Source of the DNA: Pseudomonadota bacterium
GTDB taxonomy: Bacteria > Pseudomonadota > Alphaproteobacteria > SHVZ01
DNA: 64,000 nucleotides
NCBI GenBank assembly: GCA_016195085.1
Contig: JACQAG010000054.1
Coordinates: forward strand, 7,045-71,044
Direction: 5' to 3'
Below, one piece after another: positions 3,356-62,538 of this stretch. The notes beneath the pieces were generated by a model. It had not been told where the DNA came from and did no database searches. It worked only from the letters and a program-made list of their open reading frames with translations. Every line of letters starts with the position of its first letter. The stretch's first letter is position 1. Made by a program: the position numbers and the translations under genes.

Positions 3356-3371
3356 GAGGCTCCGAGAACCC

Positions 3372-4732: not shown

Positions 4733-4770
4733 AAGCCACCCCTCCCACTGGCACACACAACCTAAAGATA

Positions 4771-4797
4771 TTAACCGTTCCTGAAGGAATGGTTAAC
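4771..4797. promoter_or_regulatory. imperfect 26-bp palindrome TTAACCGTTCC-N4-GGAATGGTTAA(C) in the ctrA/fliI divergent promoter region
   Basis: Read directly: ttaaccgttcctgaaggaatggttaac. Arms contain TTAAC (CtrA half-site) and, on the bottom strand, GTTAACCATT (resembles the SciP/CtrA-type motif). Confidence 0.4.
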
Positions 4798-10527: not shown

Positions 10528-10539
10528 GGCCCGAGCCGG

Positions 10540-20900: not shown

Positions 20901-21025
20901 AAATCCGGCTTCCGAGCGCGAAGCACGCCCCGAGCGCTCACCCTAGCCTTAGTTCGATTAACAAAGCCTAGCCCAAGCCCTATCCTCGGGGCGCTCGAGG
21001 GACGGGTCAGGGAAGCGGGGCCGGG

Positions 21026-24778: not shown

Positions 24779-24848
24779 GACGCTTCTCCTTCTCTAACCT
24801 TCGCGGGCCTCTCGGCCGCTCTCCAAATTTGAACCGTTGCGCTGAGTC

Positions 24849-25514: not shown

Positions 25515-25535
25515 GACTCTGTGTCCTTCGCGCTC

Positions 25536-27602: not shown

Positions 27603-27642
27603 GATGTCGTAGCCGTCTGTCTATTGTGGCAGCTCGAATGGA

Positions 27643-29811: not shown

Positions 29812-29920
29812 AGCTATATCCCGCTGCGGCCCGAGATCCTCGATACTCGGCGCCTAGACTCCGCGTTGAGTGATATCAAATAAGGAGGACGCGTGCCAGG
29901 GCGCTGGGGTCCGTCGAGCC

Positions 29921-30910: not shown

Positions 30911-30960
30911 CGCGACGCCGAGACTATGCCGAGAAGCGCGACTCGCGCTACACCCGCGCG

Positions 30961-35291: not shown

Positions 35292-35325
35292 GTTCCGTGG
35301 CGGCAACGCCGGTGCTCGGCTATAG

Positions 35326-38498: not shown

Positions 38499-38646
38499 GG
38501 GCCCGGCCGCGTGCCGAGTGCGTTCCGTTGGCCCGGCCTTTCTGCTATAGCTCGACCTGACCGCAACACGAGCGCTGGTTCGATCCGGCTCCCGGCGAGC
38601 CCAATCGGCCGAGTTCGCCAATTCGTCCCAAAAGGGGCATCAATAT

Positions 38647-39531: not shown

Positions 39532-39548
39532 TCACCACCGGCTGACGC

Positions 39549-47981: not shown

Positions 47982-49881
47982 GGGCGGGCTCGGAACGCGC
48001 TCGGCACCATTCCCGCCATAATCCGCGACAGGCCGCTTCAAATTGGCGGGCATAGTCCCGGCCATCGGCAAGCGGAGAGGCGGCGATCTGTTGGCGCAAA
48101 TCCGCGCGGAGCCGGCGCAGGCGGCTCGGATCGCGAGCGAGCCCGACGGCAATCCGCACATAGGTCTCCGGGTCTCCGGCCACCAGCGTCTCTAGGCCGA
48201 CCCGGACCAGCATGCTGGCGCCCTGACGGGCGACCAAGGTGTTTCCTGCGAGCGTGACGATAGGCACGCCCATCCACAGGACTTCGGCGCTCGACAGGCC
48301 GCCGGTGAAGGGCAGAGGGTCGAGCGCGATGTCGACGCTACCCAGCGCCGCCAGATGGCCGCGGGCAGCGGGCACGCGGCCGAGATACCGGACCCGCTCC
48401 CGGTCGATACCGGCTTCGGCGAGGGAATAGGTCAACCGCCGCCTCGGCCCCGACTCGGAGAGCGCGATCGCCTTCACCAGCAAACGCGCCTCCGGCAGCG
48501 CATCCAGGATGCGCGCCCAAAGCGTTAGGGTCTCGGGCGTCAGCTTGGTAAGGTTGTTGAAGGAGCCGAGCGTCACATGTCCCGAGCGGTCAGCCGGCAA
48601 AGGCTCGACCGCCGGGGCGTCCTGTGGCGGCTCGAACACGGCAAAGCCGGCATCGAGGCGCAGGAGCCGGTCCTGGTCGGCATCAGCGCCATCGCCCGGC
48701 GGATCCAGCCAGCGGTCGGTGATCCTGGCGTCGATGGCGCTCAAGCCGGTCGCGGTCACGTGATTGAGGGCGGCGATCTGGATGGGGGCCTTGCGGCAGG
48801 CGAAGCGGCGCCGATCGCGGGCGAGGTAGCCGGTGACCGACACCATGATGTCGACGCCATCGGCGCGGGCGGCGGCGGCGACGGCGTCGTCGTCCAATCC
48901 GGCGATGTCGCGCCAACCGTCCGCCATGGCGCGCAGACGTTCGGTATCGTCATCCGGCCGCGCCACCTCGGCATAGCCCAGAACCCGGAACCGGTGGCGA
49001 TCATGGTGAGCCCACAGCGGGCGCAGTTGCATGAGGAATTGATGCCGCCTCAGGTCCGGAGAGAGGTAGGCGATGGTCAGTCGACGCTCGGGGTCGGCGG
49101 AATTGGCGAAGCTTGGTGCCGGCCCGCAATTCCTCTCGGCCATGCGCCCCCAACGGCGACTTGCCCGCGACTGCCGAGCGGCGTCGGATTCGGGCATGAA
49201 GCAAAGCGCGAAGATGAGGTTGCTGTGGGGATCATCGTCCTCGGGCTTCAGAGCGATGGCACGGTCATAGGCGCGGACCGCATCGGCAAAGCGGCCGCGA
49301 TCCCTGAGATGGTTGGCGCGGTTGAACCACGCCTCGGCATAGGCCGGCTCCAAGGCGAGCGCGCGGGCGAAGCGAGCCTCGGCGCGGTCGTCGTCGGCGA
49401 GTGCTGCCAGCGAGCCCAAGGCGAACCAGGCATCGGCATAGTTGAAATCGTGGGCGATCGTCCGCCACAAGGTGCGCTCGGCCGCGGCACCTTCTCCTTC
49501 GTCAACGAGCGCGCCGCCCAGATTGGTCAATATCGGCACCACCCCAGGAGCCAGCGCCACCGCCCGGCGGTAGGAGCCCGCGGCCTCCTCGCCTCGCCCG
49601 AGGCGCTTCAGCGCGTTGCCGAGATTGCTGTGGTAAAGCGCTTGATCGGAGGAGATTTGGATGGCGCGACCGATCAGGTCTATCGATTCGGCGGGACGGC
49701 CCATGTCGGAAAAGGCCACACCGAGGAGATGCAATGCATCGGCGTGCTGCTGCTCGCGCTGGAGAATCGCACGATAGAGTTGGGCCGCTTCGCCGATGCG
49801 CCCGGCGCCATGCAGGCTGATCGCTTGCGCCAGGATCTCGCTCACTAGCATCGGCCGGCGGGGCTCAGTCGACATGGGCAA
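47965..49881 (-). CDS. TPR + GT41 FlmG-like glycosyltransferase (paralog 9)
   Basis: 638 aa. VTLGSFNNLTKLT, VDIALDPLPFTGGLSSAEVLWMGVPIVTLAGN. 3' end overlaps the convergent paralog 8 by 17 nt. Confidence 0.8.
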   Translation of the reverse strand: MPMSTEPRRPMLVSEILAQAISLHGAGRIGEAAQLYRAILQREQQHADALHLLGVAFSDMGRPAESIDLIGRAIQISSDQALYHSNLGNALKRLGRGEEAAGSYRRAVALAPGVVPILTNLGGALVDEGEGAAAERTLWRTIAHDFNYADAWFALGSLAALADDDRAEARFARALALEPAYAEAWFNRANHLRDRGRFADAVRAYDRAIALKPEDDDPHSNLIFALCFMPESDAARQSRASRRWGRMAERNCGPAPSFANSADPERRLTIAYLSPDLRRHQFLMQLRPLWAHHDRHRFRVLGYAEVARPDDDTERLRAMADGWRDIAGLDDDAVAAAARADGVDIMVSVTGYLARDRRRFACRKAPIQIAALNHVTATGLSAIDARITDRWLDPPGDGADADQDRLLRLDAGFAVFEPPQDAPAVEPLPADRSGHVTLGSFNNLTKLTPETLTLWARILDALPEARLLVKAIALSESGPRRRLTYSLAEAGIDRERVRYLGRVPAARGHLAALGSVDIALDPLPFTGGLSSAEVLWMGVPIVTLAGNTLVARQGASMLVRVGLETLVAGDPETYVRIAVGLARDPSRLRRLRADLRQQIAASPLADGRDYARQFEAACRGLWREWCRARSEPALNPRA

Positions 49882-49925: not shown

Positions 49926-50918
49926 ATGTCGATTTTTACCGGCAAGAACGTGCTCGTCACCGGCGGCACCGGCCTCATCGGTCGCCCGTTGGTGGAAATG
50001 CTGCTTGCCGAGCGGGCGGCGGTGCGCGTCGCCTCGCTCGACGATCCATCACGGGTGGTGCCGGGGGCCGAGTTTCGTCGTCTCGACCTTACGGTGCTCG
50101 ACAATTGCCTCGAGGCTTGCCGCGACATCGATCATGTCTTTCATCTTGCCGGCATCAAAGGCTCGCCGGCAATGACGCATTCCCGGCCGGCCAGCTTCTT
50201 CTTCCCGACGATCTCGTTCAACACCAACATGATGGAGGCGGCGCGCCGGTGTGCCGTCGAGCGCTATCTCTTCACCTCCACCGTCGGCGTCTATTCCCCG
50301 GCGGAGGTGATGCACGAGGACGATGTCTGGCGGAGCTTCCCCTCGCCGAACGATCGCTTCGCCGGATGGGCGAAGCGCATGGGCGAGCTGCAGGCGGAGG
50401 CTTATGCGCTCGAATATGGCTGGGACAAGATCGGCATCGTGCGGCCGCCCAACGTCTATGGACCGTTCGACAACTTCGATCCCGAGGGCGGCATGGTCGT
50501 GCCCTCGCTCATTCGCCGCGCCGTCGACGGCGAGCGGCCGCTGACGGTCTGGGGCGACGGCACGCCGGTGCGCGACTTCATCCATGCCCGCGACGTGGCC
50601 CGCGGCATGCTGGTTGTGATGGAGAAGGGACTCGGCCCTCCGGTCAATCTCGGCTCCGGGACCGGAACCTCGATTCGCCGGCTGGTCGAGGTCGTGGTCG
50701 CCGCGCTGGGCGAGCCCTGCGAGGTCGCGTGGGATACCAGCAAGCCGGCAGGCGACCGCATGCGGGTGCTGGACGTCGCGCGCGCGCGCGCGATCGGCTT
50801 TGAGGCGGAGGTCTCGATCGAGGACGGTATCGCCGAGACCCTGGCTTGGTACCGAGCCAACCGCGCCGGTCTGCCCAAAAGGTACGACGTGTTCAAGGAT
50901 CAAGTCTTCCGGCCCTGA
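49926..50918 (+). CDS. NAD-dependent epimerase/dehydratase (SDR) family protein
   Basis: 330 aa. VLVTGGTGLIGRPL. Paralog of 29921-30910, sharing ...VRPPNVYGPFDNFDPEGGMVVPSLI. Confidence 0.8.
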   Translation: MSIFTGKNVLVTGGTGLIGRPLVEMLLAERAAVRVASLDDPSRVVPGAEFRRLDLTVLDNCLEACRDIDHVFHLAGIKGSPAMTHSRPASFFFPTISFNTNMMEAARRCAVERYLFTSTVGVYSPAEVMHEDDVWRSFPSPNDRFAGWAKRMGELQAEAYALEYGWDKIGIVRPPNVYGPFDNFDPEGGMVVPSLIRRAVDGERPLTVWGDGTPVRDFIHARDVARGMLVVMEKGLGPPVNLGSGTGTSIRRLVEVVVAALGEPCEVAWDTSKPAGDRMRVLDVARARAIGFEAEVSIEDGIAETLAWYRANRAGLPKRYDVFKDQVFRP

Positions 50919-51296: not shown

Positions 51297-52301
51297 CTAG
51301 TCGTCGACCTGCCCATCGGGCTCGTAGACGATGATGCGGCTGCCGGCGGCGCCGATCCCGACGGGGACGTGGATGAGCCGGCTCAAACGGTCGGTGACCG
51401 CCGCGCGCTTGCCGGGCTCGACGAGGAAAGCCATGAAGCCGCCGCCGCCGGCGCCGAGGAGCTTGCCGCCGGTGGCGCCAGCGGCCATCGCCGCCTCGTA
51501 GATCTCGTCGATATGCGCGTTGGACACGCTGTCGGCGAGCTCGCGCTTCAGCCGCCAGCCCTCGTGCAGGAGCCGGCCCAGCTCCGTCATCTTGCGCATC
51601 GGGTTCGTCAAGATCGCCTCGGCCTCGTCCACCATCTGGGTCATGGTGCGCAGCTGGGTGGCACGCTTGTCGAGATTGGCGATCTTCTCCCTGGCGATGT
51701 CGGTCGAATAGCGCGAAACGCCGGTGAAGAACAGCAGCAGCCCTTGCTCGAGCTCCTGGCGCTTCACGTCGGGGATGACGATCGGCCGCACCTCGAAGCG
51801 CCCGTCGGTGCCGAAATTGATGCGCGCGAGGCCGCCATAGGCGGCCCAGATCTGGTCCTGGCTGCCGACGCTCTCGCCGATGATTTCCTGCTCGATGCGG
51901 ATCGTCTCTTCCGCAAGCTTGCGCTTGGTGATCATCTTGCCTTGCAAGGCGAAGAGCGCGTTGAGCAGCCCGGCGGTGAAGGACGAGCTGGATCCGAGGC
52001 CGGAGCGCGCCGGCAGATCGCCATCATGGTGGATCTCGATGCCGGACTCGAACGGGTGCTCCTGCAGGACGGCGCGCACCGAGGGATGGACGATGTCGTC
52101 GATGGCCTTCACCAGCTCGATGCGGGCGTAGACGATCCGGTGCTTGTGCTCGAAGAACGGCGGCAGCGGCCTGACGGTGATGTAGCAGTATTTGTTGATG
52201 GCCGTTCCCAGCACGGCGCCCCCGTGCTCCCGGTACCATCTCGGATAGTCCGTACCGCCTCCGAACAGAGATACGCGGAACGGGGTGCGACTGATGATCA
52301 T
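51297..52301 (-). CDS. GHMP-family sugar kinase, HddA-like (D-glycero-D-manno-heptose 7-phosphate kinase-type)
   Basis: Start at MIISRTPFRVSLFGGGTDYP (ATGA overlap with upstream gene). GHMP motif PARSGLGSSSS. The ORF-track N-terminal extension is rejected. Confidence 0.7.
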   Translation of the reverse strand: MIISRTPFRVSLFGGGTDYPRWYREHGGAVLGTAINKYCYITVRPLPPFFEHKHRIVYARIELVKAIDDIVHPSVRAVLQEHPFESGIEIHHDGDLPARSGLGSSSSFTAGLLNALFALQGKMITKRKLAEETIRIEQEIIGESVGSQDQIWAAYGGLARINFGTDGRFEVRPIVIPDVKRQELEQGLLLFFTGVSRYSTDIAREKIANLDKRATQLRTMTQMVDEAEAILTNPMRKMTELGRLLHEGWRLKRELADSVSNAHIDEIYEAAMAAGATGGKLLGAGGGGFMAFLVEPGKRAAVTDRLSRLIHVPVGIGAAGSRIIVYEPDGQVDD

Positions 52302-53041
52302 GAGTCCTCGCCGACCGGACGCCGGGATTCCCGGAAGAACGCGGTCGCTCCCGACAGGCTTTCGGGCGTGCCGATGTCGATGAATGCCCCCTGGCGCACC
52401 ACCGCATGTAGCGCACTTGGCTGGAGCTTTTCCAGGAAATCCCGCTCGAGCGACGGACCATCGCTGCCGGCCAGGCGATCCAGCGCCTGCCGTCCGAAGC
52501 AGTACAGCCCGGCATTGATGAGAGCGGGGCCCGCGCTGGACGGATCCTTCTCGACGAAGCGCTCGACATTGCCCTGGCGGCCCACGATCACGCGGCCGTA
52601 GCGTCTGGCGTCGGCGACCTCCACGCACAGCATCGAGGCTTCGGCGCCGCTCTTTTGATGCTCGCTCACCACACCCGCCAGCTCGACCTCGACGGCGCTG
52701 TCGCCATTCAACACCAGCACCGGATCGGAATGGAGCTGCTTCATGGCGAATCTGAGCGCGCCAGCGGTTCCCAGCGGCGCCGGCTCGACCACGGGGATGA
52801 CGGACAGGCGATCCGGCGCTCTGCCGCTCAGATGCGCCAGAACACGCTCGGCCAGGTGGCCGAGGCAGAGCACGACCCGTTCGAGCCCGGCTGCTTCGAG
52901 CCGGACGAGCAACAAATCGAGAAAGGTGGTGCCACCGATCGGCGCCAGGACTTTCGGTGTGCTGCCGAGCACGCCCGCGATGCGGGTGCCCTGGCCCCCG
53001 GCGAGCACCACCGCGTCGATCTTGGCTAAGGTCCCGGGCAT
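52298..53041 (-). CDS. sugar-1-phosphate nucleotidyltransferase, HddC-like (guanylyltransferase-type)
   Basis: Start MPGTLAKIDAVVLAGGQGTRI (G-x-G-T-R nucleotidyltransferase motif). Immediately upstream of the GHMP kinase, as in hddC-hddA pairs. Confidence 0.7.
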   Translation of the reverse strand: MPGTLAKIDAVVLAGGQGTRIAGVLGSTPKVLAPIGGTTFLDLLLVRLEAAGLERVVLCLGHLAERVLAHLSGRAPDRLSVIPVVEPAPLGTAGALRFAMKQLHSDPVLVLNGDSAVEVELAGVVSEHQKSGAEASMLCVEVADARRYGRVIVGRQGNVERFVEKDPSSAGPALINAGLYCFGRQALDRLAGSDGPSLERDFLEKLQPSALHAVVRQGAFIDIGTPESLSGATAFFRESRRPVGEDS

Positions 53042-53075
53042 GGTCCTGAAGCCGTTGCGCCCGGCATGAGCCCGT

Positions 53076-54029
53076 TCACGCGGCGCGGCGGACGGTCTCA
53101 CGATACCAGCCGTGAGTCCGTCCGAGACCCGTGTCGAGATCGGTCCGGGGTTTCCAGCCCATGGCGGCCAGGCGCGAGCCTTCGAGGCGTTTCAGCGGCA
53201 TGCCGTCGGGCTTGTCGGCGAGGTATCGGAATTCGCCATGATAGCCGATCACGGCGGCGATGCGGCTCGCGAGCTCGGCGATCGACACGTCCTCGCCCAG
53301 GCCGAGATTGATGACGCGCTCATTGCTGTATCGTTCCATGAGGAAGACGAGGCCGTCGGCGGCATCGTCGACGTAGAGGAACTCCCGCCTTGGCGTGCCC
53401 GTGCCCCAGATCTCCACCGGACCGCCGGACGACGTCGCCGCATCGACCTTGCGGATCAGCGCCGGCACGACATGGCTGGAGCCGAGATCGAAGTTGTCGC
53501 CGGGACCGTAGAGGTTGGTCGGAATGACGGCGATGAAATCCTTGCCATGCTGGCGGCGATAGGCCTGGCAGAGCTTGATGCCGGCGATCTTGGCCACCGC
53601 ATACCACTCATTCGTCGGCTCGAGCGGACCAGTGAGCAGCGCCTCCTCACGCATGGGCTGGGCGCAGAGCCTCGGATAGACGCAAGATGAACCGAGGAAC
53701 ATCAGCTTGGCGACCCCAGCCTTGGCCGCAGCATGGATGACGTTCGCCTCGATCGCCAGGTTGTCGTAGAGAAACTCCGCCGGCCGGCTGTCATTGGCGA
53801 GGATGCCGCCGACGACGGCGGCGGCGAGAATGATCGCGTCGGGCCGCATCTCGGCGAGCCATGCCTCGACCGCCGCCTGCTGCCTCAAATCGAGCGCCGC
53901 CCGCTCGACCGTCAAGACCGTCGCGCCGTCGGCCGCCAGCCGGCGCGCCAGCGCCGCGCCGACCATGCCCTTGTGTCCGGCGACCCAGACGCGCTTGTGG
54001 GCGAGGGGGAACAACGTGCCTGCCGCCAT
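53076..54029 (-). CDS. fcl: GDP-L-fucose synthase-like epimerase/reductase (Fcl/WcaG; possibly ColC-type)
   Basis: 317 aa. KRVWVAGHKGMVGAAL Fcl N-terminus, conserved S-x-YA-x-AK catalytic region (NEWYAVAKIAG). Confidence 0.8.
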   Translation of the reverse strand: MAAGTLFPLAHKRVWVAGHKGMVGAALARRLAADGATVLTVERAALDLRQQAAVEAWLAEMRPDAIILAAAVVGGILANDSRPAEFLYDNLAIEANVIHAAAKAGVAKLMFLGSSCVYPRLCAQPMREEALLTGPLEPTNEWYAVAKIAGIKLCQAYRRQHGKDFIAVIPTNLYGPGDNFDLGSSHVVPALIRKVDAATSSGGPVEIWGTGTPRREFLYVDDAADGLVFLMERYSNERVINLGLGEDVSIAELASRIAAVIGYHGEFRYLADKPDGMPLKRLEGSRLAAMGWKPRTDLDTGLGRTHGWYRETVRRAA

Positions 54030-54039
54030 GGTCCTGGCC

Positions 54040-54984
54040 TCAGACGTTCGAGTACACCGAGTTCTGCAGCATGGTGTAGCCCTTGATCATCTCCTTGATG
54101 CCGTCGTCGAGGCTGTATTTCGGCCGGAAGCCAGTCTGCTCGATCTTGGCGTTGGAGACGATGTAGTCGCGCTTGTCCGGATCTTCACCGATTGGCGCCT
54201 CGAGAAAGACGAACTTGGGCAGATGCGTGCGAATGCGCTCGCACAGCTCCAGCTTCGACAAATTCGCATCCGACAGGCCGACATTATAGGCCTGGTCGCG
54301 CATCTCCTCGAAATTGGCGAGCCCGTGCAGGAAGGTGCGGGCGACGTCGCGGACGTGGATAAAGTTGCGCTTGAAGTGCGGCTCGAACAGCACCACCGCG
54401 CGGTCGTTGAGGGCGCGATAGACGAAGTCATTGACCAGGAGGTCGATACGCATGCGCGGGCTCATGCCGAACACAGTGGCGAGCCGGAAGCTGATGGCGT
54501 TCCCGTGCTCGAGCGCGATCGCCTCCGCCTCGACCTTGGTACGGCCATAGAGGGAGATGGGGTTGAGCGAGTCGTTCTCGGTGATCGCCTTGCCCTTCTG
54601 GCCGATGCCATAGCCGGAATTGGTGATCGGCATCAGCAGGCGCTGGCCGCGGCTCATCAGCTTCGTCAGGCTGGCGATGGCGTCGCGGTTGACGCTGACG
54701 GCACCGATCTTGTCGCGGTCGCAAAGCGGGGCGCCAACCAAGGCGGCGAGCGGAATTACCACGTCGGCCTGCTTCAGGAGCGGCTTCAGGGTCGCCTCGT
54801 CGCGCGCATCGCCGCGGACCACCGAAAAGTTCGGATCGGCGCACACGTGGTTGAGCGAATTCTGCTTGAACAGGAAATTATCGATCACGGCGACTCGATG
54901 GCCGTCGGCCAGGAGTGCCGGCACCAGCGTGGATCCGAGATAGCCGGCGCCGCCGGTCACGACGATCGAGTAGGTCTGAGCCAT
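54040..54984 (-). CDS. NAD(P)-dependent sugar epimerase/reductase (short SDR, extended type)
   Basis: 314 aa. IVVTGGAGYLGS, YxxxK (LYGRTKVEAE). Possibly the 4-reductase or 4,6-dehydratase of the pathway; function not resolved. Confidence 0.7.
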   Translation of the reverse strand: MAQTYSIVVTGGAGYLGSTLVPALLADGHRVAVIDNFLFKQNSLNHVCADPNFSVVRGDARDEATLKPLLKQADVVIPLAALVGAPLCDRDKIGAVSVNRDAIASLTKLMSRGQRLLMPITNSGYGIGQKGKAITENDSLNPISLYGRTKVEAEAIALEHGNAISFRLATVFGMSPRMRIDLLVNDFVYRALNDRAVVLFEPHFKRNFIHVRDVARTFLHGLANFEEMRDQAYNVGLSDANLSKLELCERIRTHLPKFVFLEAPIGEDPDKRDYIVSNAKIEQTGFRPKYSLDDGIKEMIKGYTMLQNSVYSNV

Positions 54985-55047
54985 GCGCGCAATCCTAGCA
55001 GATTCGCCTTGGGGAGGGACGCCTCAGGCGCCGTCTGCGTCGCTGCG

Positions 55048-56226
55048 TCAATTGCAGGTGCGGTCGAGCACGTGGTGCAGGCGTTCGATCTGCGCCGTGA
55101 GGTCGGTCGGATGGTTGCCGACGAAGAAGCCGTGGTCGTGAGCGGTATCCGCGTTCGGCGTCGACCCGCCCACGACCTCGTAGTCGAAATACTTGATGGC
55201 GGGATGCCTGAGGAAATTGCCGCCGGTGATGATGCGGAAGCCGATATCGGCTTCCTTGAGCGCGGCGAACACCCGCTCGCGCGCGATGTTGCGCTCGGGG
55301 TTGAGGATGATGGTGAAGGAGAAGGCGGAGCTCTTGCCGTTCTCGCGCTGGATGATGAAGCGGGGATCCTTGCCCAGGAGCTGGTGAAACAGCGCCATGT
55401 TCCGGCGCCGCTGCACGGTCATTCCCGGCAGCTTCTTCAGCTGCTCCACGCCGATCGCTCCCGAAAGCTCGATCGGCCGCACATTGTAGCCGGGCATGAT
55501 GAACTTATAGGCTTCGTAGAAGTCGCTTCCCGAACGGCGATAGACCGGGCTGTCGGGCGGCAGATCGCGGGTCCAGCCGTGGTTGCGGATGACACGCATG
55601 AGATGCGCGAGCTCCGTATCGTCGGTGATCACCATCCCGCCTTCCATGGTCGAGATGTGGTGGGAGAAGAAGGTGCTGTGCGTACCGACATCGCCGAAGG
55701 TGCCAGCCTTGCGGCCCGCCAGCTCGGCATCCATGGACTCGCAATTGTCTTCCATGAAGAACAGGCCCTGCGCGTCGGCGAAGCGCCGCATGGCGTCGAG
55801 CGCAGCCGGATTCCCGAGGATCGAGACGGCAAGGATCATGCGCGTGCGGGCCCCAAGCGCGGCCTCGAGCTTGGAGACATCCATGTTGAGGGTCTCGAGC
55901 TCGACATCGACGAACTTCAGCTTGAGGCCGTATTGCTGCAGGGGATGATAGGTGGTGCTCCAGGAAATGGCGGGCACGATCACCTCGTCGCCGCGCTGGA
56001 GAGGTCTGTCCTTCTTGTGGAAGAAGGCCGCGACCGCCACCAGGTTGGCCGAGGATCCGGAGTTCACCATGACCGCATGCTTGGCGCCGAAATAGGCGGC
56101 GAACGCCTCCTCGAAGGCGCGCACATTCGGACCCATGGTGAACTGTCCCGACGCGATCACACGGTTGATCGCCTCGATCTCCTCCTGGCCCCAGGTCGGG
56201 GTGGCGAGCTCGTAGAACATCCTCAC
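55048..56226 (-). CDS. DegT/DnrJ/EryC1-family PLP enzyme with His replacing the Schiff-base Lys: ColD/E1-type NDP-4-keto-6-deoxyhexose 3-dehydratase
   Basis: 392 aa. FFSHHISTMEGG, where aminotransferases of this family have SFH..K.I...EGG; the His sits at the Lys position, as in ColD (GDP-4-keto-6-deoxy-mannose 3-dehydratase). No Fe-S Cys cluster, so ColD-like rather than E1. Confidence 0.7.
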   Translation of the reverse strand: MRMFYELATPTWGQEEIEAINRVIASGQFTMGPNVRAFEEAFAAYFGAKHAVMVNSGSSANLVAVAAFFHKKDRPLQRGDEVIVPAISWSTTYHPLQQYGLKLKFVDVELETLNMDVSKLEAALGARTRMILAVSILGNPAALDAMRRFADAQGLFFMEDNCESMDAELAGRKAGTFGDVGTHSTFFSHHISTMEGGMVITDDTELAHLMRVIRNHGWTRDLPPDSPVYRRSGSDFYEAYKFIMPGYNVRPIELSGAIGVEQLKKLPGMTVQRRRNMALFHQLLGKDPRFIIQRENGKSSAFSFTIILNPERNIARERVFAALKEADIGFRIITGGNFLRHPAIKYFDYEVVGGSTPNADTAHDHGFFVGNHPTDLTAQIERLHHVLDRTCN

Positions 56227-56260
56227 CCCGCCTTGCGCGTCATTGCCACGTGCGAGACCA

Positions 56261-57334
56261 TCAGAAGGGTCCGCGGAACTGGCTCTGGTAAGCGAGCTTG
56301 GCGCGCTCCGGATCGGGCCGCCAGGATTTGTCCTTCGGCTTGACCATGCGGTGTGCCGTCTCGGCGATCGTGCCGGGATTAGGGTAATAGAGCGCTTCCA
56401 GCGCCGGCGTCGTCGGGCAGGTCGTCGGCATGAAGCCCATGCGTTTGACGGCGATCCCGGCCTCCGACCCTACCTCCTCGAAGACCCGGGCGACGATTTC
56501 AGCCGAGGCCCCGCCGCAGGTCCAGGCATTGTCGACGACCAGAAGGCGCTTCGTGCGACGCGCCGAGGCGATGATGGTGTCCACGTCGAGCGGCACCAGG
56601 CTGATGGGATCGATCACTTCGGCGCGAATGCCGACCTCGGCCAGGAGCTCGGCCGATCTGAGGCACTCGACCACCATGTTGGACACGCCGACCATGGTTA
56701 TGTCGTCGCCCTTCATTGCCACCCGCCCCTTGCCGAGCGGCACCGTGAAGGGCGCCTCAGGCGTATAGGCTTCGGTCGGATAGAGGAGGCGGTGCTCGAC
56801 GAAGATCGTCGGGTTGTCGTCTCGAATGGCTGCGATGAGGCAGCCCTTGGCGTCATGGGCGTTGGACGGTGCGACGACCTTGAGGCCCGGCACATGCATG
56901 AACATGGCATGCAGACCCTGGCTGTGCTGCGCGCCTTGGCCCCAGGATTTGCCGATCATGCTGCGCACCACCATCGGCACCTTGACCGAGCCGCCATACA
57001 TGTAATGAGCCTTGGCGGCCATGTTGATGAGCTGGTTCATGCACAGCATGAGGAAGTCCATGCGGATGTGCACATGGATCGGCCGCATGCCGGCCATCGC
57101 CGCGCCGATCGCCATGCCCGACATCGCGTCTTCGGAGAGCGGCGTGTTGAATACGCGATCGCGACCGAAGCGCTGCTGCAATCCGAGGGTCGAGCCTTGA
57201 ATGCCCTTGGGATCGTCCACGTCGAGCCCGAACAGGAAGACCGAAGGGTCCCGCTCCATTTCTTGGATCACCGCTTCCTTGAGCGCATCCACATAGCGCA
57301 GGATGCGGCCGGGATGCGCCGCTTCAGGAGGCAT
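56261..57334 (-). CDS. TPP-dependent 2-oxoacid dehydrogenase E1 beta subunit (transketolase-like C-terminal half)
   Basis: 357 aa, PDH/acetoin-dehydrogenase E1-beta-like throughout. No E2/E3 genes nearby. Confidence 0.85.
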   Translation of the reverse strand: MPPEAAHPGRILRYVDALKEAVIQEMERDPSVFLFGLDVDDPKGIQGSTLGLQQRFGRDRVFNTPLSEDAMSGMAIGAAMAGMRPIHVHIRMDFLMLCMNQLINMAAKAHYMYGGSVKVPMVVRSMIGKSWGQGAQHSQGLHAMFMHVPGLKVVAPSNAHDAKGCLIAAIRDDNPTIFVEHRLLYPTEAYTPEAPFTVPLGKGRVAMKGDDITMVGVSNMVVECLRSAELLAEVGIRAEVIDPISLVPLDVDTIIASARRTKRLLVVDNAWTCGGASAEIVARVFEEVGSEAGIAVKRMGFMPTTCPTTPALEALYYPNPGTIAETAHRMVKPKDKSWRPDPERAKLAYQSQFRGPF

Positions 57335-58331
57335 AGACCTGCTCCATCAGCTCGCGGGGCTCCGGGAACGGGCTCTCCTCGGCAAATCGGATCGCCTCCG
57401 CGACGAGCGTCTCGACCTCGCGATCGACGGCGGCGCGGGCTGTGGCATCGAGCGCTCGGCCGGCGCTCTCCACCTGATCGGTGCTGCGCCAGCGCTCGAG
57501 CTCGTCCTTGCCGCGATAGCCGATGTGGTAGTCCTCGCCGGGCCCGACATGCTCCTTCCAGCGGTAAACATGGGCCTCGATGAACACTGGACCGGAAGCG
57601 CCACTGCGCATGGCGGCGACGGCCTCCGCGGTCGCCGATCGGATGGCGAAGACGTCCCCGTCGGCGATCTTGTGCGCCGGGATGCCGAAGGTCTCGACGC
57701 GCTCGCAGAGCCGATCGGTCGCCCAACGCTTCGATTGTGGAGTGTGGATCGCGTAAAAATTGTTCTCGCAGACGAACAGCATCGGCAGGCGATGCAGGCT
57801 CGCGAAGTTGAGGGACTCGTAGAACACGCCCTCCTCGGTCGCCCCGTCGCCGAAGAAGGCGGCTACCACCTGTCCCTTGCCGCGGCGCTTGTAGGCGAGC
57901 GCGTAGCCCATGGCGATCGGCACGGTGGTTCCGACGACGGCGGAGGTGCCCAGCACGTTGGCCGCCATGTCGACGAGATGCATGGAGCCGCCCTTGCCGC
58001 GGGCGCAGCCGGTCGCCTTGCCATAGAGCTCGGCGAACATGCCCTTGAGGTTGCCGCCCTTGGCTAGATAGGTGGCGTGGCCCCGATAGGTGCCCGATAC
58101 GGCATCATCGGCGCGGAGCGCATCGCACACTCCCACCGCCACGGACTCCTGGCCGATCGATAGATGCACCGGGCTTTTGATCTTGTCCGTGGGGTAGATG
58201 CGCGCCACTTCCTCTTCGGCGCGCCGGATCAGCCGCAACGACCGGTAGATGCGCGTGAGGTCGGCTTTGCTGAGATCGGAAAGGTTGGGTTTCGCCACGC
58301 CATAGCCTCGTCGCCTGCCGCCGGCGACCAT
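57324..58331 (-). CDS. TPP-dependent 2-oxoacid dehydrogenase E1 alpha subunit
   Basis: TPP-binding GDG-x-N region (FFGDGATEEGVFYESLNFASLHRLPMLFVCENN) and YRGHATYLAKGG. Start placed at ATG 58331; the ORF-track 58460 start overlaps the upstream gene. Confidence 0.75.
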   Translation of the reverse strand: MVAGGRRRGYGVAKPNLSDLSKADLTRIYRSLRLIRRAEEEVARIYPTDKIKSPVHLSIGQESVAVGVCDALRADDAVSGTYRGHATYLAKGGNLKGMFAELYGKATGCARGKGGSMHLVDMAANVLGTSAVVGTTVPIAMGYALAYKRRGKGQVVAAFFGDGATEEGVFYESLNFASLHRLPMLFVCENNFYAIHTPQSKRWATDRLCERVETFGIPAHKIADGDVFAIRSATAEAVAAMRSGASGPVFIEAHVYRWKEHVGPGEDYHIGYRGKDELERWRSTDQVESAGRALDATARAAVDREVETLVAEAIRFAEESPFPEPRELMEQVYAS

Positions 58332-58402
58332 GCAAAATGCGATCCGCGGACTCTCGCTCCTACTATCAGAGCCACCGGCGAGCGTACAGGTCTTTGTACC
58401 GC

Positions 58403-60511
58403 TCAAGGCCCCTCGAGCGTGATCGCCCGGGCCGGAGCGCCGCTTTGATAGATACGCCACGCCTCGGTGTAGGCTCGCTCGAGATTGCGCGCGAGGCGGG
58501 CTGAGTCGAATAGCGGGTGGGTCTCGCGGTTGCGTCTGAGCTGCGCCTTCAGCCGGGCCATCTCGACCGGAGATTGGGCGAGCTCGACCGCCATCGCCTC
58601 GAAGCCGGCGACCGTCGTGGCGGACAGCTCCTCCATGCCGATGCCCGCATTGAGGCTGGCGCCGACGCGGGCGGGCATGGTCTCGCCGATGAGGGTGAGC
58701 ACCGGTAGCCCGGCCCAGAGCGCATCCAGGCTGGTCACGCCCGAGGTGTAGAGGAAGGTGTCGATGAACAGGTCGGCGAGGCTGAGCCGCGCCAGGTGGT
58801 CGGCCTTGGCCGGTGGCGGCGGCGTGAAGACCAGCCGTTCCGGCTCGATTCCGGCGGCGGCGGCAGCGCGTCTGAGATTGCGCGCGCCGACCGGGTCGTA
58901 GTCATTGAGCCACAGGACCGCGTTCGGGATCCGCGCCAGGATACGCATCCACGCGGCAAAGGCCGTGGGGTCGATCTTGTAGAAGCCACCGAAATTCGCC
59001 AACACGAAGCCGTGCGCAGGCAGACCCCATTTGCCCCGATCGGACTCCGGCATCGCCATGTCGAGGGGCGGGGCAGGGTAGTAGCTGGGCGGCAACCTGA
59101 TCAGCTTTTCGGAATAGAAGGCATCGATTCCCGGTCCGAACAAGACGCTGTCGCCGATGACGTAGTCCACGAAGTCGGTGCCGGTCGGCCCGACATAGCA
59201 ATGGTGCAGCATTTGCAGCGGCGCAATCCGCTGGCTCATGACCGAAAGCGACAAGAGCCCGTCATTGCCGGAGAGATAGCCGTCAAGGTCGACCAGGATA
59301 TCGAGCCCATCGGCGGCGATCGCGCGTTGAAAGGCTTCACGGTCCGCGCCATCGACCGCGCGGAAGGCATGCGCCGCCGCGGCTAGCCGCTCTTGCAGGC
59401 GATCGTCGGCTCGAGTCGAGTAGAGGTAGACCTCGAAGGCGTCGCGATCATGCGCGGCGACGATGGGCAGCTGTGCCGCGCCGATGTGGTGGTCCCAAAG
59501 CTTGCTCGACAGGTATCCCAGCCGAATCCGCCCTCGGCCGGTCCTGCGATCCGCCGGCCATGCCGGTTCGCGTGGCGCAAATCGGTGCCGGGCGAAGTGG
59601 CGCGCGGCCTCGAAGAGCGTCCTGCTGTCCACCGCCAGAAACAGGAACAGGACGGGATTGACCAGGAAGCGGGCACTGTCCTCTTCGATCGCCGCCCGCA
59701 CGAGCTCGCCCACGCGCCTTGTGTAGTCGCGACGGGTCGGCCAATCCGCCTGATTCAGCATGTGGAAATAGTAGATATGCTCGTGGAATTGCGGGTTGCC
59801 AAAGTCGAGATCGACCGCCCGCTGCATCAAGGCGACACCCCGTTCCTTCTCGCCCAGCAGGTAGAGATTTCGGCCGGCGAGGAACTGCAGCTCCGGGATC
59901 TCGGATCCCAGCATCGCCACCCGCTGCATGTGCGCGATCGCCGACGCGCGCTGCGCCAGATTGAAGGCGCTCTGACCAAGAGCCACCTGCGGAAGCATGG
60001 CTGCGGGGGCGAGCGCAAGCTGCCGGCGGCCGGCGGTGACCGCCATCCGGTCCTCCCTCAGGGCGGTTGCCACGCGGGCGATTTCGCCCTCCAGCGTCGC
60101 GCTGTCTGGGTGGAGCGTGCGTGCGCGAACGAGAATCGCAAGGGTGGCTCTCGCGCGGTTCGAGGCGATACTAAGCGAGCCCAGATGCTCGATGGCTTCC
60201 AGCGAGGCCAGGGAAACCGCAAGCCCGCGCCAATAGCCGGCAATGGCGCTGCCTGCATCGCCGCGGCGTTCGGCGTCGAGTGCCAGCTGGAATCGGCTTG
60301 GCGAGTCCGCGGGCGCAAGCGCAAGGACCCGCCTCAGCGCCGCGCAGGCTTCAGCGCTCTGGCCGCGGGTCGTGTATGCCGAGGCGAGGTGCCGCCAACG
60401 CCGCAATAGCCCGGCATCGTCCGTTGTCTCTGCCAACCAGCCTCCCAGCGAGTTGCCTTGAAGATATCGGCAACCCCACGGCCTGTGCCACAATTGCTGT
60501 TGTTGACCCAT
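58403..60511 (-). CDS. divergent TPR + GT41-like glycosyltransferase (paralog 10)
   Basis: 702 aa. TPR-like N-terminus. C-terminal FVLANFGGFYKIDPTAF, LFIDTFLYTSGVTSLDALWAGLPVLTLIGE, HPLFDSARLARNLERAYTEAW. More divergent than the other paralogs. First gene of the minus-strand sugar operon. Confidence 0.65.
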   Translation of the reverse strand: MGQQQQLWHRPWGCRYLQGNSLGGWLAETTDDAGLLRRWRHLASAYTTRGQSAEACAALRRVLALAPADSPSRFQLALDAERRGDAGSAIAGYWRGLAVSLASLEAIEHLGSLSIASNRARATLAILVRARTLHPDSATLEGEIARVATALREDRMAVTAGRRQLALAPAAMLPQVALGQSAFNLAQRASAIAHMQRVAMLGSEIPELQFLAGRNLYLLGEKERGVALMQRAVDLDFGNPQFHEHIYYFHMLNQADWPTRRDYTRRVGELVRAAIEEDSARFLVNPVLFLFLAVDSRTLFEAARHFARHRFAPREPAWPADRRTGRGRIRLGYLSSKLWDHHIGAAQLPIVAAHDRDAFEVYLYSTRADDRLQERLAAAAHAFRAVDGADREAFQRAIAADGLDILVDLDGYLSGNDGLLSLSVMSQRIAPLQMLHHCYVGPTGTDFVDYVIGDSVLFGPGIDAFYSEKLIRLPPSYYPAPPLDMAMPESDRGKWGLPAHGFVLANFGGFYKIDPTAFAAWMRILARIPNAVLWLNDYDPVGARNLRRAAAAAGIEPERLVFTPPPPAKADHLARLSLADLFIDTFLYTSGVTSLDALWAGLPVLTLIGETMPARVGASLNAGIGMEELSATTVAGFEAMAVELAQSPVEMARLKAQLRRNRETHPLFDSARLARNLERAYTEAWRIYQSGAPARAITLEGP

Positions 60512-60576
60512 TGCAATCTACGCTATCGACGGCTCCGTCCCGCGCGGCTGCCACTCGCGAGGCGGAACTAACGCCT

Positions 60577-62538
60577 ATGGACGTCATCGATCGATCGATC
60601 AAAGCGGCGCTGCGCCTCTACAACGACGGCAACCCGGATGCGGCCGAGCAAGTATGCAGGGGCATTCTCAAGGTCGAGCCGACCAATGCCGAGGTTCTGC
60701 ATCTCCTGGCGCAGTTCGACTGTCGCCTCGGGCGGGCGCGGCGCGCGGCCGGAATCGCCCGCCAGGCGATCGCGCTGGAGCCGGCACGGGCAAAATTTCT
60801 GCTGACCCTAGGGACCGCCGAACAGGAGATGCGCAACGAGAAGGCCGCTGGCGACGGCTACCGGCGCTCCATCGCCGTCGATATCGAGCACGCTGAAGCC
60901 CATCTCAATTTAGGCGCGTTGCAGCCGATTCGAAGCAAGAGCGCACGCGCCTGCTGGCGACGGGCGGCGGTGTTGCGCCCTGATCTTCCCGAGGTCCACA
61001 ACAATTTGGCGGGCAGGGCGCTCGCCAGCGCCAAGGTCGTCGAAGCCGAGCGGCGTTTCGGCCGCGCTCTGTCGCTGCGGCCAAGCTACCCGCAAGCGTG
61101 GAATGGCCTCGCCAGCGCGGCAGGAGCGACCGGAGCCATGCATCGCTCGTTGCTGGCGGCGCGCCGGGCGCTGGCTCTGGCGCCGGCCTTTGCCGAAGCC
61201 ATGAACAATCAAGGCACCATCCTGGTGGCGGCGGGCGCGGTTGGACCTGCCGTGCGGTGGCTTTCGCGAGCGGTGGCGACTGCGCCGGGTTATGCCGATG
61301 CCGGCAGCAATTTGCTCTTTGCCTTTGCCTACGACGACTCGATCGCCCTCGCGGCGCTGTTCGCCGCGCAGCTCGCCTGGGCGAAGCGACACGCGCCCGT
61401 GCTACGGCCGCTCGAGACACGCCACGGCAATGCGCCGGAACCGGAGCGTCGCCTGCGCGTGGGCTATGTCTCGGCGGATTTTCGCGAGCACCCGATTGCT
61501 TGGAATGTCGAGGGTTTGTTCGAGCACCACGATCGGCGGAGCGTCGAGCTCCATCTCTATTCCTCGACCGTCAGCGCGGATCGAACGACGGAGCGGCTGC
61601 GCCGCCTGGCCGAGCACTGGCACGATGCAACCGACCTCGGAGCGGCGGATATCGCCGAGGCAGTGCGCCGCGACGGCATCGACGTGCTGGTGAGTCTGGC
61701 GCCGCACACCGCCTCCAATCGGCCGCTGTTCATGGCCTACCGGCCAGCGCCGGTCCAGGTGGCTTTCCACGGCATCGGCTCGACCGGCCTCGAGGCAGTC
61801 TCCTATTGGATCACCGATCCGGTCCTGCACCCCGAGGACAGCCGGGAAGCCTTCACCGAGGAGCTCGTGCGCCTGCCGTGCTTCTATCTGCATCGCCCGC
61901 CCGAGGACGCCCCCGAGCCGAGCGGCGTGCCCAGCCTCGCCTTGGGGGCGATAACCTTCGGTTCCTGCAACAACCCGGCGAAGCTCTCGCCGGCGGCCGT
62001 CAGGCTGTGGGCAGAGGTGCTGCGAGCCTTGCCCGCCAGCCGCCTGCTGGTGAAATACGTCGATCGATTCCGCGATCCCTTGGCCGCGCGGCGTCTGCTC
62101 GAGGCATTCGCGGCATACGGCATTGGCGAGGAGCGCATTGTCCGCTCGGGCGGTCTCTTGGATCGTCGCGGCCAGCTCGAGCTGCTGAGCAGCGTCGACA
62201 TTGCCCTCGACCCCGTGCCGTTCAACGGCTCGACCACCAGTTTCGAGGCGCTGTGGATGGGAGTGCCCCTGGTGACCTTGCTGGGGGATCGGTTTGTCGG
62301 GCGGGTCGGAGCGAGCTTGCTCCAGCAAGTCGGGTTGGCAGACCTCATCGCCCGGACGCCGGCGGACTACGTCGCGATCGCCGCTCGGCTCGCGGGCGAT
62401 GGACAGCGTCTGAAGGCGTTGCGTGCCTCGCTCAGGCAGCGAGTCGCCGCATCGCCGCTATGCGATGCGCCGGCGCATGCGCGTTCGATCGACGCGGCCT
62501 ACCGCATGATGTGGCGGCGATGGTGCCGCCGTCCGTGA
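60577..62538 (+). CDS. TPR + GT41 FlmG-like glycosyltransferase (paralog 11)
   Basis: Start ATG 60577 (MDVIDRSIKAAL...); the ORF-track 60280 start overlaps the divergent gene. ITFGSCNNPAKLS, VDIALDPVPFNGSTTSFEALWMGVPLVTLLGD. Confidence 0.8.
   Translation: MDVIDRSIKAALRLYNDGNPDAAEQVCRGILKVEPTNAEVLHLLAQFDCRLGRARRAAGIARQAIALEPARAKFLLTLGTAEQEMRNEKAAGDGYRRSIAVDIEHAEAHLNLGALQPIRSKSARACWRRAAVLRPDLPEVHNNLAGRALASAKVVEAERRFGRALSLRPSYPQAWNGLASAAGATGAMHRSLLAARRALALAPAFAEAMNNQGTILVAAGAVGPAVRWLSRAVATAPGYADAGSNLLFAFAYDDSIALAALFAAQLAWAKRHAPVLRPLETRHGNAPEPERRLRVGYVSADFREHPIAWNVEGLFEHHDRRSVELHLYSSTVSADRTTERLRRLAEHWHDATDLGAADIAEAVRRDGIDVLVSLAPHTASNRPLFMAYRPAPVQVAFHGIGSTGLEAVSYWITDPVLHPEDSREAFTEELVRLPCFYLHRPPEDAPEPSGVPSLALGAITFGSCNNPAKLSPAAVRLWAEVLRALPASRLLVKYVDRFRDPLAARRLLEAFAAYGIGEERIVRSGGLLDRRGQLELLSSVDIALDPVPFNGSTTSFEALWMGVPLVTLLGDRFVGRVGASLLQQVGLADLIARTPADYVAIAARLAGDGQRLKALRASLRQRVAASPLCDAPAHARSIDAAYRMMWRRWCRRP

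Follow-up and report, generated by a model that had tools for sequence, protein, structure and literature searches.

A Predicted GDP-heptose Pathway with a Candidate C4-branching Step Encoded in a Flagellar Glycosylation Island of an Alphaproteobacterium

Which sugar is made by a nucleotide-sugar operon that lies among flagellar genes and flagellin-type glycosyltransferases, where genes for pseudaminic acid (Pse) or legionaminic acid (Leg) would be looked for? The question is raised by a stretch of 64,000 nucleotides from an alphaproteobacterium of the lineage SHVZ01 (GenBank assembly GCA_016195085.1, contig JACQAG010000054.1, positions 7,045 to 71,044 of the forward strand), which was analyzed over its whole length and is termed the window. 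The operon is placed on the minus strand at 51297-60511 and combines genes resembling those of GDP-heptose metabolism with a ColD-like dehydratase and the two subunits of a thiamine diphosphate (ThDP)-dependent E1 enzyme. The reading preferred here, with a probability of about 0.55, is that the operon and its helper genes make a GDP-3-deoxy-4-C-(two-carbon)-branched D-glycero-heptose of nine carbons, which is attached to flagellin by glycosyltransferases composed of tetratricopeptide repeats (TPR) and a GT41 domain.

Results

Organization of the operon

The operon is a run of eight minus-strand genes encoding, from the upstream end, a TPR-GT41 protein termed T10, E1 alpha, E1 beta, a DegT-family protein, an extended short-chain dehydrogenase/reductase (SDR), an Fcl-like SDR, a nucleotidyltransferase, and a GHMP kinase (Table 1). 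The open reading frame (ORF) listing, the profile scans, and the public gene calls bear out this order and the enzyme families that the initial annotation had assigned to an eight-gene minus-strand operon. The public calls were made on an identical sequence (GCA_016178915.1, contig JACOSK010000068.1), and their boundaries agree with the ORF listing, giving lengths of 335 amino acids for E1 alpha, 357 for E1 beta, 314 for the extended SDR, 317 for the Fcl-like protein, 247 for the nucleotidyltransferase, and 334 for the kinase; the T10 gene starts later in the public record (58403-60436, 677 amino acids). The segment 51297-58331 is bounded by the stop codon of the kinase gene and the start of the E1 alpha gene, and T10 is just outside it, upstream of the seven enzyme genes. 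The intergenic spacing is between -11 and +71 bp; two gene pairs overlap, E1 alpha and E1 beta by 11 bp and the kinase and the nucleotidyltransferase by 4 bp. The terminator scan gave no terminator-like site on the coding strand across the seven enzyme genes, and no promoter-like sites were returned by the promoter/terminator scan. The close spacing and the lack of an internal terminator-like site on the coding strand mean that the eight genes fit a single transcription unit leading out of the 140-bp divergent region at about 60437-60576. The G+C content of the window is about 67%.

Sugar-nucleotide enzymes

The most informative gene of the operon encodes the extended SDR, which is a predicted Cj1427-type GDP-heptose C4-dehydrogenase. 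The protein matches PDB 6VO6 and 6VO8 with 358 bits in an alignment that covers residues 6-313 of its 314, and PDB 6VO6 is presumably Cj1427, the GDP-heptose C4-dehydrogenase of Campylobacter jejuni; the NCBI product name of a 76%-identical homologue agrees with the assignment, and a literature search on the PDB code 6VO6 returned nothing relevant. Cj1427 oxidizes GDP-heptose at C4, and its tightly bound NADH is recycled by 2-oxoglutarate (PMC10680097).

The DegT-family protein aligns over its full length with Escherichia coli ColD/WbdK (PDB 2GMS, 391 bits), compared with 178 bits for the CDP-sugar dehydrase E1 (PDB 3BCX/3BB8) and 265 bits for the RfbH profile, which is under the cut-off of 423. 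The Schiff-base lysine is replaced by a histidine, with FFSHHISTMEGG aligned with FYSHHIATMEGG of ColD, and the aminotransferase relatives have a lysine in this position. The protein is a predicted ColD-type GDP-4-keto-sugar 3-dehydratase dependent on pyridoxal or pyridoxamine 5'-phosphate (PLP/PMP). A pathway to a CDP-type 3,6-dideoxyhexose of the RfbH/E1 kind was ruled out, as the dehydratase is far nearer to ColD and all of its partners are GDP-sugar enzymes. The ColD-like C3-dehydratase studied in vitro works with PLP and glutamate, from which 2-oxoglutarate is set free, and together with Cj1427 it converts GDP-heptose to GDP-D-glycero-3-deoxy-4-keto-heptose, a product that the authors call novel (PMC10680097). 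The neighboring genes at 54040-56226 may thus be coupled, with the ColD-type enzyme making the 2-oxoglutarate that the Cj1427-type enzyme consumes to reoxidize its bound NADH.

The Fcl-like protein scores 353 bits with PDB 8DU0 and 315 bits with the E. coli GDP-L-fucose synthase, of which it keeps Ser-107, Cys-109, Tyr-136, Lys-140, and His-179, and it is just short of the cut-off of the GDP-L-fucose synthase equivalog. It is a putative Fcl/ColC-type GDP-4-keto-sugar epimerase/4-reductase whose step in the pathway is uncertain, and its presence here does not imply 6-deoxygenation. No Gmd is present in the window; two SDRs match PF16363 weakly (60-73 bits) and have their best matches elsewhere. 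A colitose or GDP-fucose pathway was ruled out on the lack of Gmd in the window and on the Cj1427-type dehydrogenase as source of the 4-keto group. Because a 4,6-dehydratase is missing and the ketone is predicted to come from the C4-dehydrogenase, the product would be a 3-deoxy sugar that keeps the C6 hydroxyl, not a 3,6-dideoxy sugar. The ColD-like 3-dehydratase and the Fcl-like epimerase/reductase named in the initial annotation are thus confirmed, by the 391-bit ColD match with its histidine and by the Fcl score of 460 bits, and of the deoxy or dideoxy sugar that it had proposed the 3-deoxy part stands on the ColD-type enzyme; the 6-deoxy and 3,6-dideoxy forms do not, given the C4-dehydrogenase and no 4,6-dehydratase.

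The top NCBIfam match of the kinase is HddA, at a score of 145 bits where the cut-off is 600, and the fucokinase domain of Fkp is matched with 103 bits. The best solved relatives are WcbL (PDB 4USK, 140 bits), the Bacteroides heptose kinase 3K85, and C. jejuni HddA (PDB 4N3O), in the range of 114-140 bits. The nucleotidyltransferase matches the mannose-1-phosphate guanylyltransferase family (150 bits) and HddC (100 bits, cut-off 300), both below cut-off, and its best solved relative is Yersinia pseudotuberculosis HddC (PDB 5XHW, 108 bits). A heptose origin is the best reading for the sugar of the window operon, strengthened by these WcbL/HddA and HddC relatives, by the 6VO6-type SDR, and by GmhA and GmhB genes in related cassettes (see below). 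The proposal that an HddA/HddC-like pair leads here to GDP-heptose gains support from the same three sources.

The stand-alone E1 pair

By their domains E1 alpha and E1 beta form a complete ThDP heterodimer, and the ThDP motif GDG-X26-NN is legible in the E1 alpha sequence. E1 alpha has human pyruvate dehydrogenase E1 alpha as its best solved relative (168 bits) and scores 295 bits with TIGR03182 (pyruvate dehydrogenase E1 alpha), under the cut-off of 394. Pfam scans found no lipoyl, 2-oxoacid_dh, or E3 domain of an E2 or E3 partner in any window ORF. A true pyruvate dehydrogenase was ruled out by the lack of E2 and E3 in the window, the score below the equivalog cut-off, and the conservation of the pair inside sugar cassettes. 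Stand-alone E1 alpha/beta pairs are known from paulomycin (Plm8/9) and avilamycin (AviB1/B2) biosynthesis, where they put a pyruvate-derived two-carbon chain on C4 of 4-keto sugars (PMC4802897), and the yersiniose route has 3-deoxygenation followed by ThDP-dependent branching (PMC9306805). An E1 pair without E2 and E3 that is linked to a histidine-type 3-dehydratase follows the yersiniose logic, and for this reason the predicted role of the pair is the decarboxylation of a 2-oxo acid (probably pyruvate) and the placing of a two-carbon branch on the C4 ketone. The product would be a 4-C-acetyl 3-deoxy-heptose, or the 4-C-(1-hydroxyethyl) sugar once reduced. The earlier suggestion of a C-branched sugar is thereby supported by the stand-alone pair, its intact ThDP motif, and its linkage to the 3-dehydratase in 63 of 80 related loci. 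Branching of the YerE/ErwE type, as for erwiniose and caryophyllose, was set aside as alike in chemistry and different in enzyme family and scaffold.

An E1 pair with 49% identity is also found on plasmid pSGRIFU1 of Streptomyces griseofuscus (L088 12016-14062) among condensation-domain, acyl carrier protein, and ketosynthase genes. This polyketide synthase/nonribosomal peptide synthetase (PKS/NRPS) cluster is free of sugar genes, so stand-alone E1 pairs of this clade also serve non-sugar acceptors.

Related cassettes in other genomes

Species-representative genomes scanned with E1 alpha gave more than 500 related loci, of which 80 were fetched and are cited by L numbers; all counts are out of these 80, and the flanks read around each locus extended to at most 10 kb per side and were shorter in many. 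The loci come from Alphaproteobacteria, Acidobacteriota, Cyanobacteria, Nitrospirota, Legionella, Hydrogenophaga, Rheinheimera, and other groups. E1 beta is adjacent to E1 alpha in 77 loci, and a DegT-family gene matching the ColD-like protein of the window is present in 63, nearly all of the linked DegT proteins having a histidine at the lysine position even at about 30% identity. A GHMP kinase is encoded in 48 loci, a Cj1427-like dehydrogenase in 39, a nucleotidyltransferase in 30, a B12-binding radical S-adenosylmethionine (radical-SAM) enzyme in 28, an Fcl-like protein in 26, and a GmhA-like or GmhB-like protein in 22. The cassette is a widespread module across many phyla and is not peculiar to the window island. 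Within the flanks read, GT41 genes are near it in no more than three loci, the closest alphaproteobacterial ones, and flagellar genes in none (0/80); from this near-absence it follows that flagellin is not an intrinsic destination of the sugar.

Representatives of the SIS and HAD proteins in related cassettes match GmhA with 199 bits and GmhB with 138 bits. In the cyanobacterial loci L028 and L032 the whole set is present in the order C4-dehydrogenase, nucleotidyltransferase, GmhB, GmhA, kinase, Fcl, E1 alpha, E1 beta, dehydratase, and radical-SAM enzyme, and the occurrence of GmhA and GmhB in the related loci settles the heptose origin for the cassette family. In Azospirillum lipoferum 4B a GT41 gene is beside an HddC-GmhB fusion, after which come the genes for the C4-dehydrogenase, E1 alpha, E1 beta, and ColD. 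The fusion is one protein (WP_014189893, L087 10835-12106, plasmid AZO_p6) that is publicly annotated only as a HAD-IIIA hydrolase.

A second arrangement, with C4-dehydrogenase, kinase, Fcl, E1 alpha, E1 beta, dehydratase, and radical-SAM enzyme, is seen in L028, L032, L036, L044, L055, L063, and others, where the DegT proteins are only about 30-37% identical to that of the window and retain the histidine at the lysine position. As the histidine is found in the DegT proteins of both arrangements, the pairing of 3-dehydratase and E1 would be older than either. A view of the type-B cassettes (DegT about 33% identical) as carriers of an aminotransferase was dropped, since the alignment shows a histidine at the lysine position.

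Flagellar setting and TPR-GT41 paralogs

The left part of the window encodes chpT, ctrA, fliI, fliJ, flhF, flhA, a sigma-54 activator, motA, fliN, fliG, fliF, flgE, flgD, and fliK, with FlgE, FlgD, and FliK at 23456-27620 and a MinD/ParA-type ATPase gene among the flagellar genes that is read as flhG. The island from 20972 onward contains 14 TPR-GT41 paralogs, 12 in the window and two beyond it. Eight form the array at 30721-49881, and two further genes on the source contig follow the window end (L083 11944-17935 spans those beyond). The flagellin gene is placed about 4.8 kb past the window end, with Flagellin_N at L083 18236-18708. By Pfam the paralogs have the FlmG-like architecture of an N-terminal TPR region and a C-terminal GT-B fold, and they are encoded with flagellar genes. 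Their GT domains are only 27-63% identical pairwise, with T3 and T10 as outliers, so the 14 paralogs are not recent duplicates. T10 is the most divergent at 29-35% identity to the others, yet has the strongest GT41 match. Homologues of T10 with 41% identity are next to the cassette in the Azospirillum loci L024 and L033 and in A. lipoferum 4B, and T10 is likely the transferase dedicated to the new sugar. Cultured bacteria with both the cassette and a T10-like GT41 include A. lipoferum 4B and A. thermophilum.

No NeuB-type synthase (PseI/LegI), CMP-transferase (PseF/LegF), or PseB/LegB dehydratase was found among the window ORFs, and Wzx, Wzy, an ABC exporter, and an initiating or undecaprenyl-phosphate phosphotransferase are likewise missing from the window. 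The initial annotation had reported the lack of Pse/Leg genes, and this holds with every coding-like ORF of the window scanned against Pfam. Nor are such genes found in the 4.8 kb just outside on the right side, where three TPR-GT41 genes wholly or partly beyond the window end are followed by flagellin. Since a TPR-GT41 gene heads the operon, hook/basal-body genes and flagellin flank it, and exporter and polymerase genes are lacking, flagellin is the predicted target, and the operon sugar probably decorates it in place of pseudaminic or legionaminic acid. That the island uses a different, unusual sugar, as had been proposed, is in line with the profile, structure-database, and synteny tests.

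Candidate helper genes and neighboring features

The pathway probably extends past 51297-58331 to include a second Fcl-like SDR (SDR2) and the B12-binding radical-SAM gene. SDR2 is 32% identical to the operon Fcl; its YxxxK motif is replaced by AGWAK (in FAGWAKRMG), and the epimerase cysteine and histidine are also gone. Members of the SDR2 subfamily with 52-64% identity are encoded directly after E1 beta in Nitrospirota loci and distant phyla (L039 12927-14030, L047 11998-12981, L053 14190-15179, and L048 6303-7295), and SDR2 probably belongs to the same pathway. The subfamily may be a non-canonical or non-redox one. The B12 radical-SAM protein scores 282 bits, below cut-off, with NF033712 (KedN5 family C-methyltransferases), and its homologues with 44-60% identity adjoin E1 alpha/beta cassettes in L025, L028, L048, L052, and L070; from this placement the enzyme probably modifies the same sugar. 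A second radical-SAM family of about 500 amino acids is found beside the E1 cassettes in 23 loci.

The GT4 glycosyltransferase and FkbM methyltransferase genes embedded in the GT41 array suggest a glycan of more than one sugar or one that is O-methylated. At 3104-4792 a DUF3553 gene and the genes of a ChpT-type histidine phosphotransferase and a CtrA-like response regulator are directly beside the flagellar export genes, a neighborhood that speaks for an alphaproteobacterial origin. Two coding-like ORFs of the flagellar/glycosylation region have no Pfam match, at 8164-10539 (minus strand, 792 amino acids) and 30011-30961 (plus strand, 317 amino acids), the former having an unusually high G+C content at codon position 2.

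Table 1. Genes of the operon and of the surrounding glycosylation island, with window coordinates
Feature	Coordinates	Strand	Evidence and remarks
TPR-GT41 paralog	20972-23440	+	PF13844, 134 bits; TPR repeats; by flgE, flgD, fliK
B12-binding radical-SAM enzyme, KedN5-like	27796-29853	-	PF02310, PF04055; between fliK and the GT41 array
TPR-GT41, array	30721-32925	+	Pfam, NCBIfam
TPR-GT41, array (T3)	32883-35288	+	Pfam, NCBIfam
GT4 glycosyltransferase	35326-36540	+	Inside GT41 array
TPR-GT41, array	36330-38495	+	Pfam, NCBIfam
FkbM methyltransferase	38551-39528	+	Inside GT41 array
TPR-GT41, array	39546-41423	+	Pfam, NCBIfam
TPR-GT41, array	41138-43597	+	Pfam, NCBIfam
TPR-GT41, array	43429-45789	+	Pfam, NCBIfam
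TPR-GT41, array	45132-47981	+	Pfam, NCBIfam
TPR-GT41, last array member	47965-49881	-	Pfam, NCBIfam
SDR2, Fcl-like	49926-50918	+	PF01370; divergent orientation
GHMP kinase, HddA-like	51297-52301	-	PF08544
Nucleotidyltransferase, HddC-like	52298-53041	-	PF00483
Fcl-like SDR	53076-54029	-	NF047922, 460 bits (cut-off 500)
Extended SDR, predicted Cj1427-type	54040-54984	-	PF01370
DegT-family protein, predicted ColD-type 3-dehydratase	55048-56226	-	PF01041
E1 beta	56261-57334	-	Transket_pyr, Transketolase_C
E1 alpha	57324-58331	-	PF00676, 212 bits
TPR-GT41 (T10)	58403-60511	-	PF13844, 205 bits; operon gene 1
TPR-GT41, right of operon	60577-62538	+	Pfam scan/precomputed Pfam
TPR-GT41, right of operon	62520 onward, running off the window	+	Pfam scan/precomputed Pfam

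Discussion

The pathway proposed here builds on what is observed, namely the enzyme families, their catalytic motifs, and the conserved linkage of the genes; all substrates, the order of the branching and Fcl-like steps, the donor acid, and the protein that accepts the sugar are predicted. A GmhA whose gene is outside the window would supply D-glycero-D-manno-heptose 7-phosphate, which the HddA-like GHMP kinase would phosphorylate at C1, with GmhB, also encoded outside the window, taking off the 7-phosphate. After activation to the GDP-sugar, the Cj1427-like dehydrogenase would oxidize C4, the C6 hydroxyl staying in place, and the ColD-like enzyme would strip the C3 hydroxyl to give GDP-3-deoxy-4-keto-heptose, turning glutamate into 2-oxoglutarate. 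As 2-oxoglutarate is the co-substrate of the Cj1427-type enzyme, C4 oxidation and C3 dehydration may feed each other. The E1 pair would then decarboxylate a 2-oxo acid, most likely pyruvate, and the acyl anion held on ThDP would attack the C4 ketone to yield a tertiary alcohol with a 4-C-acetyl group. The Fcl-like enzyme probably carries out C5 epimerization before branching, reduction of a ketone, or both, and further tailoring would come from SDR2, the FkbM methyltransferase, and the C-methyltransferase of the B12 radical-SAM type before T10, the GT41 protein encoded by the first operon gene, transfers the finished sugar.

Several points weigh against this pathway. The identity of 6VO6 as Cj1427 is presumed, with an NCBI product name in its support, and the kinase and the nucleotidyltransferase are far under the HddA and HddC equivalog cut-offs (145 versus 600 and 100 versus 300 bits). 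GmhA (SIS) and GmhB (HAD) were not found in the window by the Pfam scan of every coding-like ORF. The E1 fold does not fix the acceptor, as the approximately 49%-identical E1 alpha/beta pair of the Streptomyces PKS/NRPS cluster without sugar genes illustrates, and a competent Fcl/ColC-type enzyme alone would finish an unbranched 3-deoxy-L-heptose, the C4 ketone then being lost to branching. In the flanks read, 77 of the 80 related loci have no GT41 gene and all 80 have no flagellar gene.

These points give room to alternatives at each stage of the pathway. Ending at an unbranched GDP-3-deoxy-heptose, on the pattern of the colitose and C. jejuni HS:5 pathways, with the E1 pair otherwise engaged in acyl supply or 2-oxo acid recycling, would agree with the complete set of bifunctional epimerase/4-reductase residues in the Fcl-like protein, with the Fcl gene directly after the C4-dehydrogenase both in the window operon and in its nearest relatives (L001, L002, L005, L029, and L057), and with the ready reduction of 3-deoxy-4-keto-heptose by C4-reductases in vitro (PMC10680097). 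However, Fcl is present in only 26 of the 80 loci, whereas the core of E1 alpha/beta and histidine-type dehydratase is found in 63, no other plausible substrate of a stand-alone E1 is encoded nearby, and the pairing of a 3-dehydratase with a ThDP enzyme repeats the yersiniose logic (PMC9306805), which makes an unbranched end product unlikely. Where a branch is formed, its donor could differ from pyruvate; examples are 2-oxobutyrate, hydroxypyruvate, and the 2-oxoglutarate from the ColD reaction, which is made on site by the dehydratase chemistry (PMC10680097), so that the branch would be longer or functionalized as in erwiniose and caryophyllose; ErwE and MyGE are ThDP branching enzymes with long functionalized donors (PMC9306805), and some cassettes come with genes for an aldehyde dehydrogenase and an aldo-keto reductase. 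This is judged very unlikely, as the nearest E1 alpha profile is that of pyruvate dehydrogenase (TIGR03182, 295 bits), the known E1 alpha/beta sugar-branching pairs use pyruvate (PMC4802897), and no aldolase or other donor-forming gene is encoded in the window.

Two further alternatives concern the two ends of the pathway. The kinase and nucleotidyltransferase could salvage mannose, fucose, or a similar hexose toward a branched 3-deoxy-hexose, to which the mannose-1-phosphate guanylyltransferase top match of the nucleotidyltransferase (150 bits), the 103-bit match of the kinase to the Fkp fucokinase domain, and the absence of GmhA and GmhB from the window would correspond; the best solved relatives of both proteins are nevertheless heptose-pathway proteins, the extended SDR is a close homologue of a heptose-specific C4-dehydrogenase, and related cassettes contain GmhA-like and GmhB-like genes, including the nucleotidyltransferase-GmhB fusion, leaving a hexose highly improbable. 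At the other end, the sugar could be as proposed and be destined for lipopolysaccharide (LPS), capsule, or another glycoprotein, its flagellar position being incidental. Most related cassettes are near GT2 genes and without flagellar genes, and the A. lipoferum cassette is on a plasmid beside WavE-type LPS and GT2 genes. Against such a destination, the first gene of the operon is a TPR-GT41 gene with 13 more around it, in a region reaching from hook/basal-body genes to the flagellin gene, a flippase, polymerase, exporter, and undecaprenyl-phosphate transferase are all absent from the window, and TPR with GT-B is the architecture of FlmG, so that an incidental position appears quite unlikely. 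The branched 3-deoxy-heptose attached to flagellin is thus retained as the preferred reading.

In enzyme families and logic the operon is like the capsular GDP-heptose pathways of C. jejuni, with HddA/HddC, Cj1427, the HS:5 C3-dehydratase, and C4-reductases. The natural 3-dehydratase route of C. jejuni, however, starts with a 4,6-dehydratase and leads to a 3,6-dideoxy sugar, and the pairing of Cj1427 with the C3-dehydratase is artificial there (PMC10680097); with the natural pairing of the Cj1427-type and ColD-type enzymes in the operon and no 4,6-dehydratase, the C6 hydroxyl should be retained. C. jejuni also has no ThDP or B12 radical-SAM enzyme in these pathways, and its products go to the capsule, not to flagellin. 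GDP-L-colitose biosynthesis (ManB/ManC, Gmd, ColD, and ColC) shares the full-length ColD match (391 bits) and an Fcl/ColC-type gene, here two downstream, but the operon is without Gmd and has the Cj1427-type dehydrogenase, the HddA/HddC-like activation, and the added E1 alpha/beta pair.

YerE of yersiniose biosynthesis is an enzyme of the acetolactate-synthase type. It is a single-chain ThDP-dependent flavoprotein and not an E1 alpha/beta heterotetramer (PMC4802897). The yersiniose A route is like that of the operon in that a 4-keto sugar nucleotide is 3-deoxygenated before a ThDP enzyme adds a pyruvate-derived two-carbon unit at C4 (PMC9306805), and differs in its 6-deoxy CDP-hexose scaffold and its iron-sulfur dehydratase E1/RfbH with the reductase E3; YerF carries out the reduction after branching. 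AviB1/AviB2 and Plm8/Plm9 share with the operon the E1 alpha and beta subunits without E2 and E3, the location among sugar-nucleotide genes, and the two-carbon unit at C4 (PMC4802897), but their substrates are the dTDP-deoxyhexoses or pentoses of antibiotics from actinomycetes, and the predicted scaffold of the cassette is a GDP-heptose, in Gram-negative bacteria and other phyla; the window pair is likened to them by subunits and gene setting. For the transfer step, FlmG of Caulobacter and Brevundimonas is like the island in combining TPR with GT-B in a flagellar cluster, here in an alphaproteobacterium-like genome with ChpT and CtrA. FlmG is a single gene for which CMP-Pse and CMP-Leg are the only known donors, in contrast to the 14 divergent paralogs and predicted GDP-sugar of the island, which is likened to it by architecture.

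The operon thus combines two known kinds of chemistry, GDP-heptose tailoring and ThDP-dependent sugar branching, recruited to an expanded FlmG-like island. Literature searches found no published pathway or sugar of such a kind, including a ThDP-branched GDP-heptose or a heptose-type flagellin glycan. More tentatively, and at less than even odds, the conserved cassette of HddA/HddC-like, Cj1427-like, ColD-like, and E1 proteins may define a widespread unrecognized class of GDP-activated nine-carbon 3-deoxy-4-C-acyl heptoses, often C-methylated by a B12 radical-SAM enzyme and extending from Alphaproteobacteria to Cyanobacteria, Acidobacteriota, and Nitrospirota, which here would replace Pse/Leg as the flagellin O-glycan and be installed and elaborated by the 14 FlmG-like TPR-GT41 proteins.

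If the preferred reading is correct, a 3-deoxy C4-branched heptose would be a new type of bacterial sugar, and its operon a natural pairing of enzymes that have so far been combined only artificially, from Campylobacter. Branching by E1 alpha/beta ThDP enzymes would extend from the antibiotic sugars of actinomycetes to cell-surface GDP-heptoses of many phyla, and FlmG-like TPR glycosyltransferases would not be confined to CMP-nonulosonic acids. The 14 divergent paralogs in one island would then provide a natural test bed for the diversification of donor and acceptor specificity.

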